A stretch of 54,416 bases of DNA, from assembly GCA_026395595.1 (NCBI GenBank), contig JAPLYL010000008.1:1-54416 (forward strand), given 5' to 3'. The translations under genes and the position numbers were made by a program. How positions within the stretch are numbered: position 1 is the first letter of the stretch; every line of letters starts with the position of its first letter. The notes beneath the pieces were generated by a model that was not told the origin of the DNA, made no database searches, and worked only from the letters and a program-made list of their open reading frames with translations. This DNA is from Candidatus Parcubacteria bacterium (GTDB taxonomy: Bacteria; Patescibacteriota; Minisyncoccia; Phycocordibacterales; CAIJYI01). Shown here piece by piece: positions 1 through 54,139 of this stretch.

Positions 1-2538
1 TCTGAAACTGACCGATTGTCCCGAAATGACATTGAACTCCGCTGTTTCATGAGGAGCAGCGCCATGGCTTATGATCGGAACCTGTACCGTGTTGCCGGCT
101 TTGGTTGCCGTGCAGGTTCCGGAGCTGGATCCTCCGTTCGGACTGGAACAGGTCCATGTGGCTGTTCCTCCGGGTGTCGGGGGTGTGGTATTGCTGGGGG
201 TTCCGACAGCGCATTGGGGGTAAGTACCAAAGGCGGTTTCTTTGTTGGAGTAGGCGCGGGCGGCGGTGCCGCAGGCGGCTGGGTCAAGTCCCGTAACACT
301 GACGGTTGCTTGCGCCGATGTTCCGACGTCGTTTTTACAAATAAGGGTGGAAGAGGAAATCCCTGACACGGCAGTCAGAGTTCCTGTTACGGGAGAGAGG
401 TTTATGAGTCCGGGTCTGTCTGTTCCGTCTTGAGTGCAAGACGTAACATCTGAAGAACCGAATTTGTACATATACGAAGACCCGGTTGGGATGCTGATAT
501 CACTGACCCACGTAACGCCGTCATCTTTGCTGACCTGAAAAATGACCATGGGATTGGGGAGGATCGTTACCGTCGCCGTTGCGGGGAGAGAGTTCCCTCC
601 CGCTCCGGTACAGGTAACGGAGTAGTTTTTAACAGCCGTGATATTGGATTGCAGTTCAGAACCTGAAACAGCTTTGGTTCCCGACCAACTACCACTTGCG
701 GTACAAGAAGAGACATCGCCGGCAGTGGTCCAAGTGAGAGTAGATGAACCGCCTGATGTGACAGAGGTTGGAGAGGCGGTGAGAGTTACGGTTGGGGGTG
801 GAGGGACGACAAGGGCGGGGGCGACGACGGTGTAGGGGAGAGAATACGATTGTGTTCCTGAAAAAACATTCGAAGATAAGGAAGCATCTATTGTGGCATT
901 ATACGTTCCAATAACGTTTTGTGAAACAAAAGAAGACACTGTTTTATTTAAAACGTCAGTAGCACCACTGTTATTTATTGTCGCAGTCAAACTAGTTCCA
1001 TCAGCTTGGTTTCCACATGCGACATAATATGCCGCTGCAGTTACGCTCATTTTTTCTCTGACAAGGTAAACGCTTTTATCTAAAGATGCAGTAATATAAA
1101 TATAGTTAAAACATCCAGTTCGGCGAGCAGGAGCGTGATAACAAACAGGTAAGTAGAACGTACCTTCGTTAGCAGCCCTCGCTTCCCTCCCTCCCGCAAA
1201 CAAAGAAACCCCCACCATTACCGCCAACAATACAGCCATATCATGTCTCCTGTTTTTTCTCGCCAAATAAAAGGAGAGAAAAGCGATAAGAAGAAGAACA
1301 AAACCAAAAACAGTCCGCGCAAGAAGCATATCAAAGATAGGATTCTCCGTTTCGGCTTTCGGATTCATCTCATACTTATTCTCCGACAGAACTTTCTTGT
1401 TTTGATCGGTAATTTGCGCAGTAACCACGGGATTCTGACAGGTGGAAGTTATGGGAATGGAAAAATGTTCCAGACCTCCCTGTTTTTTGGCATCAAGATT
1501 CTGATTAAATGACTCAGAGCAAGAATTCCCGTTTCCATCAAGAAGGGTGAAAAAAACATCAACGGGATTCTCTGTGTCGGAAATTCCCGTTCTTGATCCG
1601 GGGAAATTATCTGCTGATCCGCTCCAAAAGAAAGAAATGTTCGCCGTCTCACCTTTTTGATAAGAAGCTTTATCTGTCGTCAGATTCTGTATAGTAGCAC
1701 TCTCACCACTGAGGACGTAGTGAAAAACAACAGGAGAAGAAACCTTTGTTTGCTTTTCATCTATAAAAGAGAGTATGGCATCATATGCCTGCGGTTCGCT
1801 TGTCTTCGGAAGAACCGCGGTGAAATCCATCTTCTGATTCGCTTTGAGAGTAATGGGAGTTTGCTTTTCCGTACCTACTATTTTTCCATAAGCGGAACGG
1901 TAGCGAGTCTCAAAAACAGGGGTGATGATCTTTTCAGTTTTAAAGGTGTTAGAGATGGAACAATGAGCGATAAGCGTTTCTTCTTTGGAAATATCGACGC
2001 CTTGGGAAAGCGTATATTTTTTATCTCCCTTTTCTCCTTTAACCGTAAGGAAGCAACCGAGAGAATCAATAAAAATACTTTCACCGGTACCATTGAGAAA
2101 AATCTCCCCGGGCAAGCGAATAATACTAAAAGGAAGCCCATCAGAATTTTTTGCTTCCACTTCAATAATATGGATTCCTCGCAAAAAGGGCGGGGCGGTA
2201 TAAACTGCTTCTTTATGAATGGATTCGTTCTCTTTAAGCCTCAAAATATCGCGATCATACACTTTCTGATCCGCCAGAGAAAATCCGTTGCTTTCCTTTT
2301 TGAGAAGCTTTACGGAATAAATGACTTCGGGTTGAATACCCGCGCGATTGCTAACGTCAAAAGCAAGGGTAAAAACATTATTCTCTTGTTTCAGAAATTT
2401 TATATTTCCAATACCGACAGTAGCAACCACCGTTACTTTTTGAGAAGAAGCGGCGACATCTATTTTTGGGGGAACTTGCGCTCCGGCCGATAGGAATCCG
2501 AAGAAAAAAACGGAGATGGAAATAAAAAAATTACGCAT
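1..2538 (-). CDS. Large secreted/cell-surface protein, 3'-truncated by the window edge (at least 846 codons). Missing from the supplied ORF track.
   Basis: I checked every + strand frame-1 triplet from 1 to 2538 and found no TTA/CTA/TCA, so the minus frame is open. ATG at 2538 gives MRNFFISISVFFFGFLSAGAQ (signal-like). An internal TM segment, RKNRRHD and a second hydrophobic segment lie at nt ~1190-1320. Ig-like Cys-pair modules (TLTWTT..SCTASGSWSG..YSVTCTG) occupy nt 1-840. Confidence 0.75.
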   Translation of the reverse strand, partial: MRNFFISISVFFFGFLSAGAQVPPKIDVAASSQKVTVVATVGIGNIKFLKQENNVFTLAFDVSNRAGIQPEVIYSVKLLKKESNGFSLADQKVYDRDILRLKENESIHKEAVYTAPPFLRGIHIIEVEAKNSDGLPFSIIRLPGEIFLNGTGESIFIDSLGCFLTVKGEKGDKKYTLSQGVDISKEETLIAHCSISNTFKTEKIITPVFETRYRSAYGKIVGTEKQTPITLKANQKMDFTAVLPKTSEPQAYDAILSFIDEKQTKVSSPVVFHYVLSGESATIQNLTTDKASYQKGETANISFFWSGSADNFPGSRTGISDTENPVDVFFTLLDGNGNSCSESFNQNLDAKKQGGLEHFSIPITSTCQNPVVTAQITDQNKKVLSENKYEMNPKAETENPIFDMLLARTVFGFVLLLIAFLSFYLARKNRRHDMAVLLAVMVGVSLFAGGREARAANEGTFYLPVCYHAPARRTGCFNYIYITASLDKSVYLVREKMSVTAAAYYVACGNQADGTSLTATINNSGATDVLNKTVSSFVSQNVIGTYNATIDASLSSNVFSGTQSYSLPYTVVAPALVVPPPPTVTLTASPTSVTSGGSSTLTWTTAGDVSSCTASGSWSGTKAVSGSELQSNITAVKNYSVTCTGAGGNSLPATATVTILPNPMVIFQVSKDDGVTWVSDISIPTGSSYMYKFGSSDVTSCTQDGTDRPGLINLSPVTGTLTAVSGISSSTLICKNDVGTSAQATVSVTGLDPAACGTAARAYSNKETAFGTYPQCAVGTPSNTTPPTPGGTATWTCSSPNGGSSSGTCTATKAGNTVQVPIISHGAAPHETAEFNVISGQSVSFR

Positions 2539-14113: not shown

Positions 14114-14974
14114 TTAAATTTTTATGTCAATATGATTCGGTTTATACATAACCCTCGCGCAGTTCGTCATTAATTTTTCTTCTTTTATCGCTTTTCCGTC
14201 AACAAGCGTTTCGCGCCATATTTCATTATACCGATAAATTCCATTGGATGTTTCAATAAAGTTATGTTTTTTTTCTTTGATGTGGTATTTTTCTTTTATT
14301 GGTAAAGTGGAAAGAATTTGCCCTTTAAGCTGGCTGTCAGACATCCATAATTTTATTTGCATCGGATATAGCGTCGTGTTTTTTATTTTCAGATCAATCA
14401 GATTATAAAAAATTGTTGCACCGGCGCCAAAAGGAATACTTCTGTCGCTATCGGGAAAAGAATCCCGAGAATGATGTTTCCGCTCGAAGACTTGAAGAGG
14501 GGTATGCAAAAAAAGCCAATACAACAAATTAGAAAGCTGACAAAGTCCTCCGCCTAAACCCTCAACAACTTCCCCGTTTGAAAGAAGCATCCCGTTCACA
14601 TACCCTCTTTTTTTTGTTGTTGCACCGACAAAGTTCCAAAAAGAAAAAATCTCACCAGGAAAAATAATAACGCCATTCAGTGAACGAATGGCTATTTCCA
14701 AATTTTTTATTTTCCCTTCCTGCAATCGAGGATCAGAATCTCCCAGTCTCCTGAAAAGAGGCGATGAATGCCGGGCGATAACGCGGTGAAAAAAAATATG
14801 GCTCTTTCTCTTTGTCAGTCGTGGGTCAAGGTTTTGTTTAACATTATTGACAAAACGACGCACACAGAGAATCAAGGGGAGCAGCATCGGATACTGCGAA
14901 GATACGGCTTTTCTCCCAAAGGCCTCTTCCATCGCTTTTCTGTGAACAGTGTTCAGTATTTCAGAATTTTCCAT
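14114..14974 (-). CDS. VanW-family protein
   Basis: GGGLCQLSNLLYW core typical of the VanW domain. Start placed at MENSEIL to avoid overlap with the upstream ORF. Confidence 0.75.
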   Translation of the reverse strand: MENSEILNTVHRKAMEEAFGRKAVSSQYPMLLPLILCVRRFVNNVKQNLDPRLTKRKSHIFFHRVIARHSSPLFRRLGDSDPRLQEGKIKNLEIAIRSLNGVIIFPGEIFSFWNFVGATTKKRGYVNGMLLSNGEVVEGLGGGLCQLSNLLYWLFLHTPLQVFERKHHSRDSFPDSDRSIPFGAGATIFYNLIDLKIKNTTLYPMQIKLWMSDSQLKGQILSTLPIKEKYHIKEKKHNFIETSNGIYRYNEIWRETLVDGKAIKEEKLMTNCARVMYKPNHIDIKI

Positions 14975-32339: not shown

Positions 32340-32480
32340 AACTTACTCTTCCATTATACAGAATTTATGCCGTGAAGGAAAACGAGATGTACACAGTGAG
32401 AGCAAAAAGCAATAAGAAAAAAGCAAAAAAGGACGACGACCGTCGTTCCTTTTTTCTTTTTGCTTGTTGCTTGTTGCTTT

Positions 32481-32810
32481 TTACTTTATCGTCTCTCCTG
32501 CAGGTATATCATTATTTGTCTCAAGCAATGAAAACTTCCCGTCCTCGGTACTAACGGCAAGGATCATACCGTTACTTTCCAAACCTCTAATGATTCTCGG
32601 TTCAAGATTTGTTGCAAAAGCGCATTTTTTTCCTACGAGAACAGAGATATCAGGAAAATACAGGGCTATGCCGGATACAATTTGACGCGGTGTTTCTTCT
32701 CCAAACCCGACGGAAAGTTTAAGCAATTTATCCGCGTTTTCCACTTTCTCTGCGGAAAGTATTTCCCCGATCTTTATTTCCACTTTTTTAAAATCATCTA
32801 TGTTTATCAT
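32481..32810 (-). CDS. csaA: tRNA-binding domain protein (CsaA/EMAP-like)
   Basis: DFKKVEIKIGEILSAEKVENADKLLKLSVGFGEE..RQIVSGI is the typical OB-fold tRNA-binding domain. Confidence 0.85.
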   Translation of the reverse strand: MINIDDFKKVEIKIGEILSAEKVENADKLLKLSVGFGEETPRQIVSGIALYFPDISVLVGKKCAFATNLEPRIIRGLESNGMILAVSTEDGKFSLLETNNDIPAGETIK

Positions 32811-39180: not shown

Positions 39181-39471
39181 ATGAAAACCGGTTTTGTTTA
39201 CATCCTCGCAAGCAAAAGAAATGGCACGCTCTATATCGGCGTCACTTCCGATCTTATAAAACGAATCGATGAACACAAAAGAAATGCCACCGACGGTTTT
39301 ACAAAAAAATACAATGTTCACACTTTAGTGTACTATGAAATGGCGGATGATATACGAGGAGCCATTGAAAGAGAAAAACAATTGAAAAAATGGAACCGGT
39401 CGTGGAAATTAAAATTAATTGAAAAAGAAAATCCACAATGGAGAGATCTTTATACTGATCTCTTTGAATAA
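39181..39471 (+). mobile_element. GIY-YIG nuclease family protein (stand-alone, 96 aa)
   Basis: GFVYILASKRNGTLYIGVTSDL (GIY..YIG), R..EHK, and the E..LKKW pattern. Flanked by ATTCCC-N8-GGGAAT palindromes. Confidence 0.9.
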
Positions 39472-39474
39472 CTC

Positions 39475-39545
39475 GTCATTCCCGCGGAGGCGGGAATCCA
39501 GAGTATTATCACTAACTCCTAGATTCCCGCCTTCGCGGGAATGAC
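39475..39545. repeat. Inverted pair of ATTCCCGC-N4-GCGGGAAT elements
   Basis: GTCATTCCCGCGGAGGCGGGAATCCAG ... CTAGATTCCCGCCTTCGCGGGAATGAC. The two ~27-nt units are near-perfect inverted copies lying directly 3' of the GIY-YIG gene. Confidence 0.85.
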
Positions 39546-39551
39546 AGCAGT

Positions 39552-49888: not shown

Positions 49889-51349
49889 CTACGATATTTC
49901 TCTGCCGACTTTGAAGAGTATTTCTTCTCCAAAATAAGGAGCGATAAGATGAAAACCGAGGGGGAGTTGTTTTCCTTCTTCCTCGACTGTACCCGAAGGA
50001 ACAGAGATTGCGGGAAGTTCGGCCATATTTGCAGGAACGGTAAAAATATCCGCAAGATACATCTGAAGAGGGTCATTCATTTTTTCACCGATTTTAAAAG
50101 CCGGAGACGGAGTGGTTGGGGTCGCAATCAAATCAACTTCTTTAAAAACTCTTTCAAAATCTTTCCTGATGAGCTTCCGCGCTTTGAGCGCATTGCGATA
50201 ATACGCATCAGCGTATCCGGCCGAGAGGACGTAAGCCCCCAATAAAATGCGACGCCTGACTTCTTCGCCAAAACCCTGCGCACGCGTTTTTTTGTACGAA
50301 TCAGAAACATCGGCGCCTTGGACAGAAAGGCCGAAACGTACGCCGTCAAAACGCGCGAGATTGGAAGATACTTCCGCGGGCATAATGATATAATAGGTCG
50401 CGAGAGAATACTTCATATAAGGAAGAGAAACATCGACTATTTCATATCCTTTCGCTTCCAGTTTTTTTATAGTGTCTTCAAAATTTTCAAGAACACGAGG
50501 GTCAAGACCTTTCATGGAAAGAAAATCTCTGGGAATACCAATTTTTATTTTCTTTGCCTCGCTTCCGTCATTCCGGCCCTGAGCCGGAATCCACGTCGTT
50601 TTTTTGTTTTTTAAAACAAGATTTTCAGGTATCGTCGTGCTATCCAGAGGATCGCATCCGCGTATCGCTTCAAAAACAATTTCCGCGTCCTCTACTGTTT
50701 TTGTAAACGGGCCAATCTGATCCAGAGAAGAGGCCATGGCCATAAGGCCAAATCGGGAAACCGCTCCATAGGAAGGTTTCATTCCGACAATCCCACAGAA
50801 AGCCGCCGGCTGTCTAATAGAACCGCCGGTGTCGGAACCGAGAGCCACCAGTGCCATGTCGGAAGCGACCGCCGCGGCGGAACCGCCGGAGGAACCGCCG
50901 GGAACGCGCGCTGTGTCGCGCGGATTTTTTGTTTTCCCGTAAGCGCTCGTTTCCGTAGAGCTCCCCATGGCGAATTCATCCATATTGGTACGTCCAAGAA
51001 AAACCGCGCCGGCCGTTTTTAATTTGGCAATAACCGTTGCATCATACGTACCAATATGCCCTTTGAGAATTTTTGAAGCAGAGGTGGATTCTTTTCCCTC
51101 AATAAGCATATTATCTTTTATCGCCATCGGAATTCCGGTCATAGGACTTCCCTTTCCGGTTTTAATCATTTCATCCGCGCGCTTCGCTTGCTCCAAAACG
51201 TCATCAAAAACCTCAAGATACGCAAAAATCTCTCCGTTCTTTTCTTTGATGGCCTCAAGATAGGCCTGCGCGAGTTCAACCGCAGTAAATTCACCGGAGT
51301 CTAATGACTTCCGGGCTTTAGCGATCGTAAGTTCTGTGAGATGTATCAT
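49889..51349 (-). CDS. gatA: Glu/Asp-tRNA amidotransferase subunit A
   Basis: Amidase signature GGSSGGSAAAVA and the KDN...GxxT pattern. Carries an ~11-aa insert, WIPAQGRNDGS. Confidence 0.95.
   Translation of the reverse strand: MIHLTELTIAKARKSLDSGEFTAVELAQAYLEAIKEKNGEIFAYLEVFDDVLEQAKRADEMIKTGKGSPMTGIPMAIKDNMLIEGKESTSASKILKGHIGTYDATVIAKLKTAGAVFLGRTNMDEFAMGSSTETSAYGKTKNPRDTARVPGGSSGGSAAAVASDMALVALGSDTGGSIRQPAAFCGIVGMKPSYGAVSRFGLMAMASSLDQIGPFTKTVEDAEIVFEAIRGCDPLDSTTIPENLVLKNKKTTWIPAQGRNDGSEAKKIKIGIPRDFLSMKGLDPRVLENFEDTIKKLEAKGYEIVDVSLPYMKYSLATYYIIMPAEVSSNLARFDGVRFGLSVQGADVSDSYKKTRAQGFGEEVRRRILLGAYVLSAGYADAYYRNALKARKLIRKDFERVFKEVDLIATPTTPSPAFKIGEKMNDPLQMYLADIFTVPANMAELPAISVPSGTVEEEGKQLPLGFHLIAPYFGEEILFKVGREIS
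50567..50593. repeat. Related palindromic element inside the gatA coding sequence
   Basis: GTCATTCCGGCCCTGAGCCGGAATCCA has the same GTCATTCC...GGAATCC termini and an internal palindrome. It is read in-frame as WIPAQGRND. Confidence 0.7.
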
Positions 51350-51362
51350 AATGAATATAATT

Positions 51363-51653
51363 CTAGAGTATTTTTCTTACCTTAACATAATTTCCCTCTT
51401 TATTCGGAGCGTTTTGTATAAGTCCTTCCGTATACTTTCCTCCTTCGTGCGGTTCTACATCTTCACGAAAGACATTATGATTTTCTCCGACATCAGAAGT
51501 ATCAGAAGAAATCTTTTCTTTTGCGAGATCCTGCACCTCAGAAACATAGGCCAAAATACCCTCCAGTTTTTGGCGGATATTTTCCAATTCTTCTTCTTTG
51601 ACTTCTATACGGGATAATTCCGCAAGATTTTGGACATCTTTGTTGCTTATCAT
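51363..51653 (-). CDS. gatC: Glu/Asp-tRNA amidotransferase subunit C
   Basis: 96 aa from MISNKDVQNLAELSRIEVKEEE (typical GatC N-terminus). TATTAT box 6 nt upstream of the ATG. The track ORF extension was rejected. Confidence 0.9.
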   Translation of the reverse strand: MISNKDVQNLAELSRIEVKEEELENIRQKLEGILAYVSEVQDLAKEKISSDTSDVGENHNVFREDVEPHEGGKYTEGLIQNAPNKEGNYVKVRKIL

Positions 51654-51659
51654 CGTCCC

Positions 51660-51688
51660 ATAATACCTCATTTTTAAGGCTTGTGCAA
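51660..51688 (-). promoter_or_regulatory. Promoter, leaderless type (TTGCAC-17-TATTAT-6-ATG) for gatC
   Basis: ATG at 51653. No SD. Confidence 0.5.
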
Positions 51689-51920
51689 AAAACATAGATA
51701 TGTTATCGTTGTCTTTGAAAAAAAGAGGGGGTTTTATGTTTAAATGTATAGAAGAAGCATTCGGTAAAATTTTATGCGCGCTCGGACACCACGATCCGAA
51801 ATATCTCAACAAAAAAACCGGGCTATGCCTGTGTACTGCGCCCGTATGAATGCAAAAAAAGGTTGTGCTCATAAAGTAGAAGGGGTAAAAATTCCGCCAA
51901 GACCAAAAGGTTAAAAATAT

Positions 51921-53975: not shown

Positions 53976-54061
53976 TTATACCCGTCCCAAGAAATTTTGG
54001 AAATGAAATGATTAAAAATGAAATGAAAATTCATCCCCAAACAACTTAACCGAAAATCTTT

Positions 54062-54099
54062 TCGCGGTAAATTCTAGCATATGCTAGAATTTACCGCGA
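54062..54099. promoter_or_regulatory. Perfect 38-bp palindrome upstream of ligA
   Basis: TCGCGGTAAATTCTAGCAT|ATGCTAGAATTTACCGCGA. Contains TGCTAGAAT (an extended -10-like sequence) on both strands. No flanking T-run. Confidence 0.7.
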
Positions 54100-54139
54100 C
54101 AAAATACCCTGATTTCTCCGTGGGGTTTTTAAAAGAAAA

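Follow-up and report, generated by a model that had tools for sequence, protein, structure and literature searches.

A hairpin of the Ssn-related motif family probably copied in frame into gatA of a Parcubacteria bacterium

The gatA gene in the window analysed, a stretch of 54,416 nucleotides from a Parcubacteria bacterium, contains a 33-nt element that is very probably a solo copy of the Ssn-related motif (SRM), i.e., an NTS/dRS3-type hairpin, recently copied in frame into this gene. NTS/SRM hairpins and the SsnA-type GIY-YIG ssDNA nucleases were described previously (Chenal et al., Nat Commun 2025, PMC11893778). The gatA copy is a new example of this GIY-YIG-linked repeat family, already described in 2025, and not a new kind of element.

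SRMs take in about half of the dRS3 copies of Neisseria. The NTS has the sequence CGTCATTCCCGCGMAVGCGGGAATCYRG. Its cleavage depends most on the three bases that flank the palindrome on the 5' side, while the C on the 3' side is the most crucial base for its binding. In Neisseria, an altered palindrome sequence abolished SsnA activity. SsnA cuts about 3 nt 5' of CGTCAT. In N. meningitidis, 2% of the NTS are found inside genes; translated copies were not discussed, and neither Parcubacteria nor Patescibacteria is named in the main text (Chenal et al., 2025). By analogy with these SRM hairpins, which serve as ssDNA recognition sites of small GIY-YIG Ssn nucleases, the gatA copy would be a putative recognition site.

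The hairpin unit in gatA and the ssn-like gene

The first-pass annotation had reported a palindromic element in frame within gatA and had placed it in the same hairpin family as the repeats bracketing a GIY-YIG gene. The letters and the reading frame at 50564-50596 confirmed the former, and motif matches and a hairpin comparison bore out the latter. Positions 50567-50593 of the + strand read GTCATTCCGGC-CCTGA-GCCGGAATCCA, and the hairpin proper is directly preceded by a CGTC tag and directly followed by a C at 50591 (Table 1). The unit has its NTS sense on the + strand, i.e., on the strand that serves as template for gatA. The hairpin element is translated as WIPAQGRND and the whole unit as TWIPAQGRNDG (residues 252-262); the unit is read through because it has a length divisible by three and no stop codon in this frame. 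Folded as single-stranded DNA, the element reached -10.2 kcal/mol (z = -3.4). The motif GTCATTCC-N(8-20)-GGAAT was found 5 times in the window vs. 0.02 times expected from shuffles, which is 250-fold over chance, and all of these five matches but the one in gatA lie on the flanks of the GIY-YIG gene (39181-39471). An antisense intrinsic terminator, composed of a hairpin and a T-run, was also considered for the gatA hairpin and rejected: the terminator scan identified no terminator-like site at 50567-50610, and the T-run begins 8 nt past the stem.

Table 1. Features of the window discussed in the text.
Feature	Position	Strand	Remarks
ssn-like gene, 96-aa single-domain GIY-YIG nuclease	39181..39471	+	Pfam GIY-YIG 2.4e-17
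Perfect palindrome, 14-bp stem, TTCGTCATTCCCTT-CTTC-AAGGGAATGACGAA	39137..39168	.	Ends 12 nt upstream of ssn start
SRM copy CGTCATTCCCGCGGAGGCGGGAATCCAG	39474..39501	+	Directly 3' of ssn stop codon; 1 substitution from SRM pattern
SRM copy TGTCATTCCCGCGAAGGCGGGAATCTAG	39519..39546	-	Inverted; exact match to SRM pattern
gatA, host gene	49889..51349	-	Intact 486-aa ORF; essential gene; uncultured ultra-small Parcubacteria bacterium
gatA length excess, 42 nt	50561..50602	-	Gap placed by MAFFT; closest orthologues compared
SRM/NTS-type hairpin unit, 33 nt, TCCGTCATTCCGGCCCTGAGCCGGAATCCACGT	50564..50596	+	Exact match to gatA codons 252-262 (TWIPAQGRNDG)
Hairpin proper	50570..50590	+	Arms ATTCCGGC (50570-50577) and GCCGGAAT (50583-50590); loop CCTGA (50578-50582)

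The SRM has been characterized by an HGTCWY tag, a hairpin-forming semi-palindrome of 20-50 nt, a C + RNCYNB tail, a motif-flanked ssn gene and binding and cleavage in ssDNA form, restricted to a single strand, by the cognate Ssn, and its published pattern is HGTCWYN(0-2)YYVSBRHN(0-5)WNVSBRGN(0-2)RNCYNB (Chenal et al., 2025). The gatA copy possesses an oriented HGTCWY tag, CGTCAT at 50566-50571, directly upstream of its palindrome, a hairpin with an 8-bp stem (ATTCCGGC/GCCGGAAT) and a 5-nt loop, and a C + RNCYNB tail, GGAAT-C-CAC at 50586-50594. The window also contains an Ssn homologue flanked by three such hairpins. Thus, the gatA copy resembles the NTS/SRM hairpins in its CGTCAT tag, its ATTCC...GGAAT palindrome, the C after the palindrome and the size of 28-33 nt. 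However, the published search pattern did not match the gatA copy, even with one substitution allowed. Compared by hand, the copy deviates at two loop positions, C for R and G for W, which places its pyrimidine-rich 5-nt loop outside the pattern. Exact matches to the pattern were the neighbouring copy at 39519-39546 and positions 14429-14456 of the related locus L001. Moreover, the stem of the gatA copy is CCGGC, while those of the copies flanking the ssn gene of the window are CCCGCG, which makes its recognition by this particular nuclease no more than putative. The gatA copy further differs in its host, a member of Parcubacteria/Patescibacteria, and in its in-frame position within an essential gene.

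The ssn-like protein contains a Pfam GIY-YIG domain over residues 4-77 and no other domain, in keeping with the <150 aa single-domain form of the Ssn proteins. Similar to NTS/SRM-Ssn loci, this gene of ~95 codons is bracketed by hairpins. Its product is 61% identical to a 95-aa N. gonorrhoeae ORF (E 3e-42 and E 8e-31). Seven NTS copies lie within 600 nt of this ORF, and these NTS flanks suggest that the gonococcal ORF is the ssnA orthologue. For the Ssn family (cd10448), homology was accepted at tblastn E < 1e-10 vs. Neisseria SsnA, and the 39181-39471 protein showed such homology via the gonococcal NTS-flanked ORF. Among NCBIfam models, only a group I intron endonuclease matched, below threshold. 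The ssn-like gene has a syntenic counterpart in L001, with 75% identity. The palindrome upstream of the gene in the window, a variant resembling the SRM, carries a GTCAT tag in each of its two strands (-14.9 kcal/mol, z -7.4), and the two copies downstream form a doublet (-31.6 kcal/mol). The ssn-like gene is likely the cognate partner of the hairpin family.

Recent gain of the unit

The gatA product matched Pfam Amidase (1.6e-144) and NCBIfam TIGR00132 gatA with 572.8 bits, above the equivalog cut-off of 481.1, and its AF2 model has the fold of GatA structures (TM 0.87). The locus order ligA-gatC-gatA is syntenic in the relatives carrying the orthologues P0002, P0003, and P0004. Type IV pilus genes adjoin the gatA locus in relatives.

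The insert is absent from the four GatA orthologues closest to the query (93-82% identity), three of which were syntenic at the DNA level. P0002, P0003, and P0004 (93, 89, and 85% identity, respectively) are 472 aa in length, and their genes are exactly 42 nt shorter in the gatA DNA alignment, which took in L001, L002, L003, L004, L006, and L007. Besides the 33-nt unit, the 42-nt excess comprises 6 nt from a run of A (Lys codons) and another 3 nt close by. In the GatA tree, P0001, which contains the insert, was sister to P0002 (96/88), with P0003, P0004, and P0005 as successive outgroups. All four lacked the insert, and so did distant GatA orthologues and solved GatA structures. The insert is thus lineage-specific, as the first-pass annotation had expected. 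Because the insert-free relatives branch as successive outgroups, the sequences place the gain of the 33-nt unit on the terminal branch leading to the P0001 species. Hairpins are prone to deletion, and the segment might instead be ancestral to the clade and have been deleted precisely in the relatives. However, its absence from P0002, P0003, P0004, and P0005 would take at least four exact losses, independent of one another, and the distant orthologues and solved GatA lack it too, rendering this history extremely unlikely.

The insert is real and not an assembly artefact. In metagenome run X1, a contig with a depth of 145 was identical across the insert, and a 238-nt contig from the independent run X2, which belongs to a different study, was identical as well. 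Run X1 also contained a 9x relative carrying the empty site. Assemblers can be misled by short repeats; nevertheless, the probability of an artefact or of a chance resemblance is negligible in view of these identical contigs from runs of different studies, the gatA ORF that stays open, the excess of the motif over chance and the recurrence of the 33-nt unit elsewhere.

The inserted loop in GatA

The segment between T238 and I270 of GatA comprises 31 residues. Among 119 orthologues, the mode was 17 residues, the lengths ranged from 13 to 44 and only three were longer than that of the query. Compared with its nearest orthologues, the query is longer by exactly 14 residues (42 nt), and 11 of these codons (33 nt) are the repeat unit, which agrees with the earlier estimate that the DSTT-KIGIP segment was ~11 residues too long. 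The same loop of GatA holds other hairpins in three other Patescibacteria (L132, L133, and L135). The site of insertion, a linker that joins the DSTT motif to the IGIP strand, is hypervariable. In addition, STRL..GQAV inserts of L128, L129, and L130 share an 11-nt string with the loop region of the unit; these inserts form no hairpin.

With 24 aligned sequences, the AF2 model was poor (mean pLDDT 62) and low in the catalytic core as well. The model obtained with the 119-sequence alignment had a mean pLDDT of 87.3 and a pTM of 0.90, and pLDDT was < 50 only at residues 126-134 and 253-263. It was compared with chains 4wj3_A, 2df4_A, and 3h0l_A, with a TM of 0.87, and the HMMER alignment was gapped at the insert vs. 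all three best solved GatA. TWIPAQGRNDG is predicted to be an extra disordered loop in an otherwise confident GatA fold, consistent with the earlier proposal that the translated insert adds a peptide loop. The pLDDT and the length variability of the linker suggest that this loop is exposed on the surface.

Other copies of the unit and of its stem subfamily

The case for a repeat family had depended on further copies of the motif, and a near-identical second unit was found on another contig of run X1. It has one mismatch and one extra C, and shares exactly the span of 50564-50596. The depth of its contig is similar to that of the gatA genome in X1 (135 vs. 145). Two frames are open across the 94 nt covered, and the flanks matched none of the retrieved loci. 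The contig is 3.6 kb in length, and its copy was probably the donor of the gatA unit. The ssn-adjacent hairpin of L001, CGTCATTCCGGCGAAAGCCGGAATCCATGTCGTT, also has its stem and the 3' tail CCAYGTCGTT in common with the gatA unit.

Scans of sequence collections identified the same stem at a minimum of 120 reference-genome loci from many phyla and the loop variant at at least 120 metagenome loci. C-N(n)-GA loops like that of the gatA copy (CTTGA, CCCCGA and others) occurred in 146 copies of this stem subfamily. Near the dispersed copies, tblastn detected a homologue of the window's GIY-YIG nuclease at 0 of 120 retrieved reference-genome loci. The canonical CCCGCG hairpin matched 167 metagenome contigs from many organisms, a count that gives no copy number for the gatA genome. 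Copies of the gatA hairpin's subfamily also lie in frame in the genes for PrmC, TopA, RadA and an HI0933-like flavoprotein; ~3% of the subfamily copies are verifiably in genes.

Mechanism of insertion

The copied 33-nt unit comprises the hairpin, its CGTC tag and, on the 3' side, a short tail; it entered gatA on the terminal branch. By analogy with REP/RAYT systems, the Ssn nuclease may help such units to spread in single-stranded form. The shared unit has its left edge at 50564, within 1-2 nt of the expected SsnA cut. The gatA copy would be a tolerated passenger and no functional part of the enzyme. Its cleavable strand would be the gatA template strand and, judged by GC skew, the leading-strand template, and the copy may be tolerated because this strand is the one least often exposed as single-stranded DNA.

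Similar to REPs and REPINs with their RAYTs, the hairpins here are short repeats, single or in inverted doublets, that flank a small domesticated gene for a nuclease or transposase acting on ssDNA hairpins, and show no obvious target duplication. Different from RAYTs, which are IS200/IS605-type HUH/Y1 transposases, the partner here is a GIY-YIG nuclease. Moreover, REPs are extragenic by definition, whereas the gatA copy is inside a gene.

At the junctions of the gatA insert, neither a target-site duplication nor another trace of transposition was recognised; 'CGT' is found on both sides, yet it is also part of the 3' tail of the family. The lack of a target duplication or defined ends at the insert would be compatible with homologous or microhomology-templated repair, gene conversion or template switching at a replication hairpin, in which case Ssn would not mobilise the unit and the nuclease would be merely a neighbour. 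The additional in-frame indels (+6 and +3 nt) beside the unit are what error-prone repair predicts, the SRM pairs downstream of ssn, which are swapped between sister species, fit conversion too, and no nuclease homologue was detectable beside any of the 120 dispersed reference-genome copies, within the retrieved loci. However, the edge of the unit is sharp and identical in two copies, its left edge is near the expected Ssn cut position, and SRMs are strongly associated with ssn across the family, at 71% of ssn loci (Chenal et al., 2025). Repair or conversion is a serious possibility but not a probable one.

It is also conceivable that the gatA copy is kept as useful, either as an Ssn cut site against incoming transforming ssDNA or as an mRNA hairpin modulating gatCAB translation. 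The model for the former is the NTS-gene-NTS arrangement in Neisseria, which restricts gene replacement by transforming DNA; in N. meningitidis, NTS/SsnA lowers transformation by NTS-bearing DNA (Chenal et al., 2025). The type IV pilus genes beside the locus in relatives, the perfect 8-bp stem with the critical GTC and C bases intact and the fold of the hairpin as RNA (-20.4 kcal/mol, z -3.3) would be consistent with such a role. However, the insert is very young, so its intact hairpin needs no selection; close relatives function without the insert; and the small share of subfamily copies verifiably in genes (~3%) is what tolerated accidents predict. We consider a useful role very unlikely.

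A wider hypothesis builds on the proposed spread of the unit as single-stranded DNA. SRM units might be mobile in Patescibacteria, with the 96-aa Ssn and the 33-nt hairpin forming a minimal single-strand cut-or-copy-and-paste system whose 5' edge is the Ssn cut site. Through such a system, essential enzymes such as GatA, TopA, PrmC, and RadA would time and again receive 11-residue loops in their permissive linkers, and the surviving genic copies would show a bias towards a cleavable strand that serves as template or as leading-strand template. In this general form, the hypothesis is unlikely.

Biological meaning

Rickettsia palindromic elements (RPEs) are reportedly selfish palindromes that lie in frame in housekeeping genes and are translated as a function-compatible loop. 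They are about 100-150 bp in size, and we know of no partner enzyme for them. Similar to RPEs, the gatA unit is inserted in frame in the gene of a conserved protein and is translated as an extra segment. Different from RPEs, it is a member of the Ssn hairpin family, and its size of only 33 nt by itself speaks against an RPE. Because its family is the NTS/SRM hairpin of Ssn nucleases, the gatA element is probably not a relative of RPEs. The first-pass annotation had drawn this comparison, which stands for the in-frame, loop-adding behaviour; the GIY-YIG-linked repeat family to which it tied the element has already been described (Chenal et al., 2025).

Taken alone, the gatA insert is one more instance of a known pattern and no new principle. 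It provides a dated filled-vs.-empty example of an essential gene in which an Ssn hairpin acts like a selfish repeat that remodels the protein, and extends Ssn hairpins to a host lineage outside the coverage of Chenal et al. (2025). With a unit of defined extent (33 nt) and a likely partner nuclease 11 kb away, the locus bears on the question, left by that paper, of whether Ssn nucleases spread their own hairpins. The hairpin in gatA also helps explain many short lineage-specific insertions in CPR housekeeping proteins. If SRM units were indeed mobile, they would be a mechanistic counterpart of the RPEs of Rickettsia, and the lineage-specific insertions that typify CPR proteins would have a general source in Ssn hairpins.

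The hairpin unit and its host gene

Direct reading of the sequence bore out in every detail what the first-pass annotation had said of the sequence, position and in-gatA translation of this element. Its core consists of a 5-nt loop between 8-bp stem arms, ATTCCGGC and GCCGGAAT, with GTC before and CCA after them, and as ssDNA the element folded at -10.2 kcal/mol (z -3.4). The ORF holding the element was identified as GatA by its match to Pfam Amidase (1.6e-144), its TIGR00132 score of 572.8 bits (cut-off 481.1) and its similarity to Aquifex GatA 3h0l (E 7.6e-142). On the gatA coding strand, the element is read as T-W-I-P-A-Q-G-R-N-D-G, residues 252–262. The pattern GTCATTCC-N(8-20)-GGAAT had five matches in the 54-kb window versus 0.02 expected from shuffles, and the four matches other than the gatA copy bracketed the gene of a 96-aa GIY-YIG protein, in support of the kinship proposed earlier between the gatA element and the repeats around that gene.

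Features of the window and of related loci
Feature	Locus	Position	Strand	Remark
33-nt hairpin unit	window	50564-50596	+	reads TCCGTCATTCCGGCCCTGAGCCGGAATCCACGT; sequence read directly
gatA	window	49889-51349	-	486-aa ORF holding the unit
gatC	window	51363-51872		longest ORF 169 aa, versus 96 aa in relatives
ssn-like gene	window	39181-39471		96 aa, GIY-YIG domain only
Downstream hairpin pair	window	39474-39546		stems CCCGCG/CCCGCG
SRM copy	window	39519-39546		exact match to published SRM pattern
Two long inverted repeats	window	32401-32485 and 54056-54105		unrelated to SRM family
Downstream hairpin pair	L001 (sister species)	14429-14520		stems TTGCGGG and CCGGC
gatA	L132	102-1538		8-bp hairpin CCCTGCCTGCGCAGGCAGGG in linker; arms CCCTGCCT-GCGC-AGGCAGGG
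gatA	L133	667-2253		58-nt double hairpin in linker; outer inverted repeats AATCCCGATT/AATCGGGATT
gatA	L135	1501-3000		two hairpins in linker
gatA	L134	1291-2799		Cys-rich insert of 44 residues in linker
Gonococcal ORF	L136	586-870		95 aa
PrmC gene	L213			in-frame copy of same SRM subfamily
Topoisomerase I gene	L215			solo copy in frame, read as LDSGSGAGMT
RadA gene	L234			in-frame doublet, same SRM subfamily
HI0933-like flavoprotein gene	L243			in-frame doublet, same SRM subfamily
RecG-like helicase gene	L052 (Patescibacteria MAG)	3-1232		ends ~10 nt before SRM copy

Of the two long inverted repeats, one is a palindrome with 35-nt arms (AGCAAAAAGCAATAAG...) and the other a palindrome with 27-nt arms (ATCTTTTCGCGGTAAATTCTAGCATAT / ATATGCTAGAATTTACCGCGACAAAAT). 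The true start of gatC is probably an internal ATG (MISNKDVQNL...), and the 73 codons upstream of it are therefore likely non-coding.

Recent gain of the insert in gatA

The closest GatA orthologues from a search of 5.8 billion proteins were P0002 (93% identical), P0003 (89%) and P0004 (85%), each 472 aa, and P0005 (82%, 473 aa). In all four, the linker that joins the DSTT motif to the IGIP strand was without the inserted block, so that this alignment, a check named beforehand, showed the insert to be lineage-specific. The fetched loci of P0002, P0003 and P0004 were syntenic (ligA-gatC-gatA-195 aa-permease-hydrogenase...), the nucleotide identities of their gatA to that of the window were 87, 82 and 80%, respectively, and the only gap in their alignment with it measured exactly 42 nt. 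In the maximum-likelihood tree, window GatA was sister to P0002 (96/88), with P0003 (99/95), P0004 (97/95) and P0005 (91/93) as successive outgroups. Given that the sister and all successive outgroups are without the insert, one gain on the terminal branch would explain its distribution. An ancestral insert that was later deleted in the relatives would need at least four exact deletions and is highly improbable. Among 119 orthologues, the linker ranges from 13 to 44 residues, with a mode of 17; that of window GatA has 31, as unusually long as had been claimed. HMMER also opened a gap at the insert in its alignments with all three of the best solved GatA structures.

The insert is no assembly artefact, as it was also recovered in independently assembled Logan contigs. 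Those of X1, probably the source sample (a freshwater metagenome), covered the insert region with zero differences at a depth of 145, and X2, from another study, had an identical 238-nt contig across the insert. X1 also contained a 9x contig of a relative of the L001 type, ~88% identical, with an empty site; this contig skips 66 nt and has 24 other letters, and is thus 42 nt shorter.

The repeat unit and its second copy

A second X1 contig (3,584 nt) matched 50564–50596, with one mismatch and one extra C, and nothing beyond that span. Because the match is confined to it, the putative mobile unit is 33 nt, which is exactly codons 252–262 of gatA. Of the other 9 nt of length excess, 6 extend an A-run by two Lys codons and 3 lie on the opposite side. 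No convincing target duplication was found at the insert junctions in the DNA alignment with orthologues. The depth of the second contig, 135, is similar to the 145 of the window genome's contig, and further copies elsewhere in the genome, as foreseen in the first-pass annotation, would be represented by a near-identical unit. The second-copy locus also occurs in the sister species (the 9x relative), so the second copy predates the one in gatA, for which it is a candidate donor. Its flanks are GAGACAGCAGGAACATCTCCACTCAAACCC / TGTCTGAAACAACAACGGTTTCTACTGGCA. Two frames, ETAGTSPLKPSVIPAPEPESTLSETTTVSTG and PVETVVVSDNVDSGSGAGMTEGLSGDVPAV, are open over the 94 nt seen, and thus the second copy may also be genic.

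The GatA linker and other genes as insertion sites

The AlphaFold model built on the 119-orthologue alignment was confident (mean pLDDT 87.3, pTM 0.90) and gave a TM of 0.85–0.87 to GatA chains in solved GatCAB and transamidosome complexes. Only residues 126–134 and 253–263 had pLDDT below 50. The latter are the inserted peptide WIPAQGRNDGS, which follows a short helix (242–251) and is without secondary structure. The insert thus lies in a linker that varies in length and is predicted to be disordered.

Linkers of baseline length (L001, L004 and L007) showed no structure (-2.6 to -5.5 kcal/mol), and long GatA linkers (DST[TS] to IG[IV]P) of other Patescibacteria hold other hairpins (L132, L133 and L135 in the table). 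The GatA linker is a permissive loop that has been hit repeatedly. At the same site, the more distant orthologues at L128, L129 and L130 have a common STRL..(G)GQAV-type insert, which contains an 11-nt string (GCCCTGAGCCG, opposite strand) also found in the window unit but forms no hairpin, and which may be an older insert now decayed or a coincidence.

Of the SRM variant seen in gatA, 124 metagenomic copies were listed. In 17 of them an open frame extended 40 codons or more to either side, a count that is an upper bound, with spurious GC-rich frames among them. For four copies (~3%), three of them inverted doublets, an in-frame position in a conserved protein could be verified, a share close to the 2% of NTS (Neisseria Transformation Sequence) copies inside genes in N. 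meningitidis (PMC11893778). The SRM copies in two Patescibacteria reference genomes inspected were intergenic. The RecG-like helicase of L052 has a low-complexity segment, HPVKSGEAGARPAESLRDTKRIPRDE, which may be another translated repeat.

Membership in the NTS/SRM family

Chenal et al. (2025; PMC11893778) defined both NTS, CGTCATTCCCGCGMAVGCGGGAATCYRG, which takes in about half of the dRS3 copies, and the degenerate Ssn-related motif (SRM). SsnA is a 94-aa single-domain GIY-YIG protein whose own gene is bracketed by NTS hairpins; it binds the hairpin only as ssDNA and on one strand only, and cuts a few nucleotides upstream of it (PMC11893778). Cleavage depends most on three bases 5' of the palindrome, and the most crucial base for binding is the C just 3' of it (PMC11893778). 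The gatA copy carries all these NTS parts, namely CGTCAT, the palindrome and the 3' C. It did not match the published SRM pattern even with one substitution allowed, and by hand comparison it departs from it at two loop positions. The L001 copy, like that at 39519–39546, matched the pattern exactly. The L001 hairpin adjoining the syntenic GIY-YIG gene, CGTCATTCCGGCGAAAGCCGGAATCCATGTCGTT, shares its stem and the 3' tail CCAYGTCGTT with the gatA copy. The CCGGC-stem subfamily was found at no fewer than 120 loci in GTDB species genomes; the matches listed include Proteobacteria, Chloroflexota, Patescibacteria and others, and their loops are mainly of the GAAA type, with C-N(n)-GA, e.g., CTTGA, also present. 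The loop variant of the gatA copy was found at at least 120 metagenome loci. The closest known system is NTS/SRM-Ssn, whose structural definition the gatA element fits, loop positions of the search pattern excepted; its recognition by an Ssn nuclease is putative. Among the literature searched, NTS/SRM-Ssn terms were used in the Chenal paper only, the main text of which makes no mention of Patescibacteria (PMC11893778), and none found linked Patescibacteria with in-frame palindromic insertions.

The 96-aa window protein was 61% identical to a Neisseria gonorrhoeae ORF (tblastn E 8e-31, pairwise E 3e-42) with seven NTS copies no more than 600 nt away. This arrangement is the NTS-ssnA-NTS architecture (PMC11893778), and we infer this ORF to be the orthologue of ssnA. 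Such identity is unusually high between phyla so distant and suggests that ssn genes have spread horizontally. The ssn-like gene shares synteny and 75% identity with its L001 counterpart, whereas the hairpin pairs just downstream differ in stems and orientations, which indicates that the repeats turn over fast, and faster than the ssn gene.

Possible mechanism of spread

The gatA gene gained a 33-nt SRM unit in frame, in a variable, predicted-disordered linker, and near-identical copies and the bracketed ssn-like gene are found in the same genome or contig. Chenal et al. raised Ssn-assisted spread by analogy with REP/RAYT (PMC11893778), which the gatA system resembles in logic, its partner being a GIY-YIG nuclease. 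By such analogy, the unit would spread via a single-stranded intermediate with Ssn involved. The left edge of the common unit (50564) is 1–2 nt from the expected cut, ~3 nt 5' of CGTCAT. The main rival to Ssn-assisted spread, in which another copy was the donor for templated repair or for gene conversion, is a fair possibility. The putatively cleavable strand is the gatA template strand and, as the + strand has a mildly negative GC skew, would also be the leading-strand template, on which ssDNA is exposed least. This pattern is only a lead, with n=1 and two further copies, in PrmC and TopA, oriented alike.

On translation, the unit leaves four of its six frames open, and its 33 nt are a multiple of three; it therefore has a fair chance of landing harmlessly in a tolerant linker. 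The gatA copy would be a tolerated passenger. As an in-frame, lineage-specific, translated insert in the essential gatA, it behaves like the Rickettsia palindromic elements to which it had been likened, but is far smaller than those and of another family. The gatA insert is real and well dated, and belongs to the already described hairpin family NTS/SRM.
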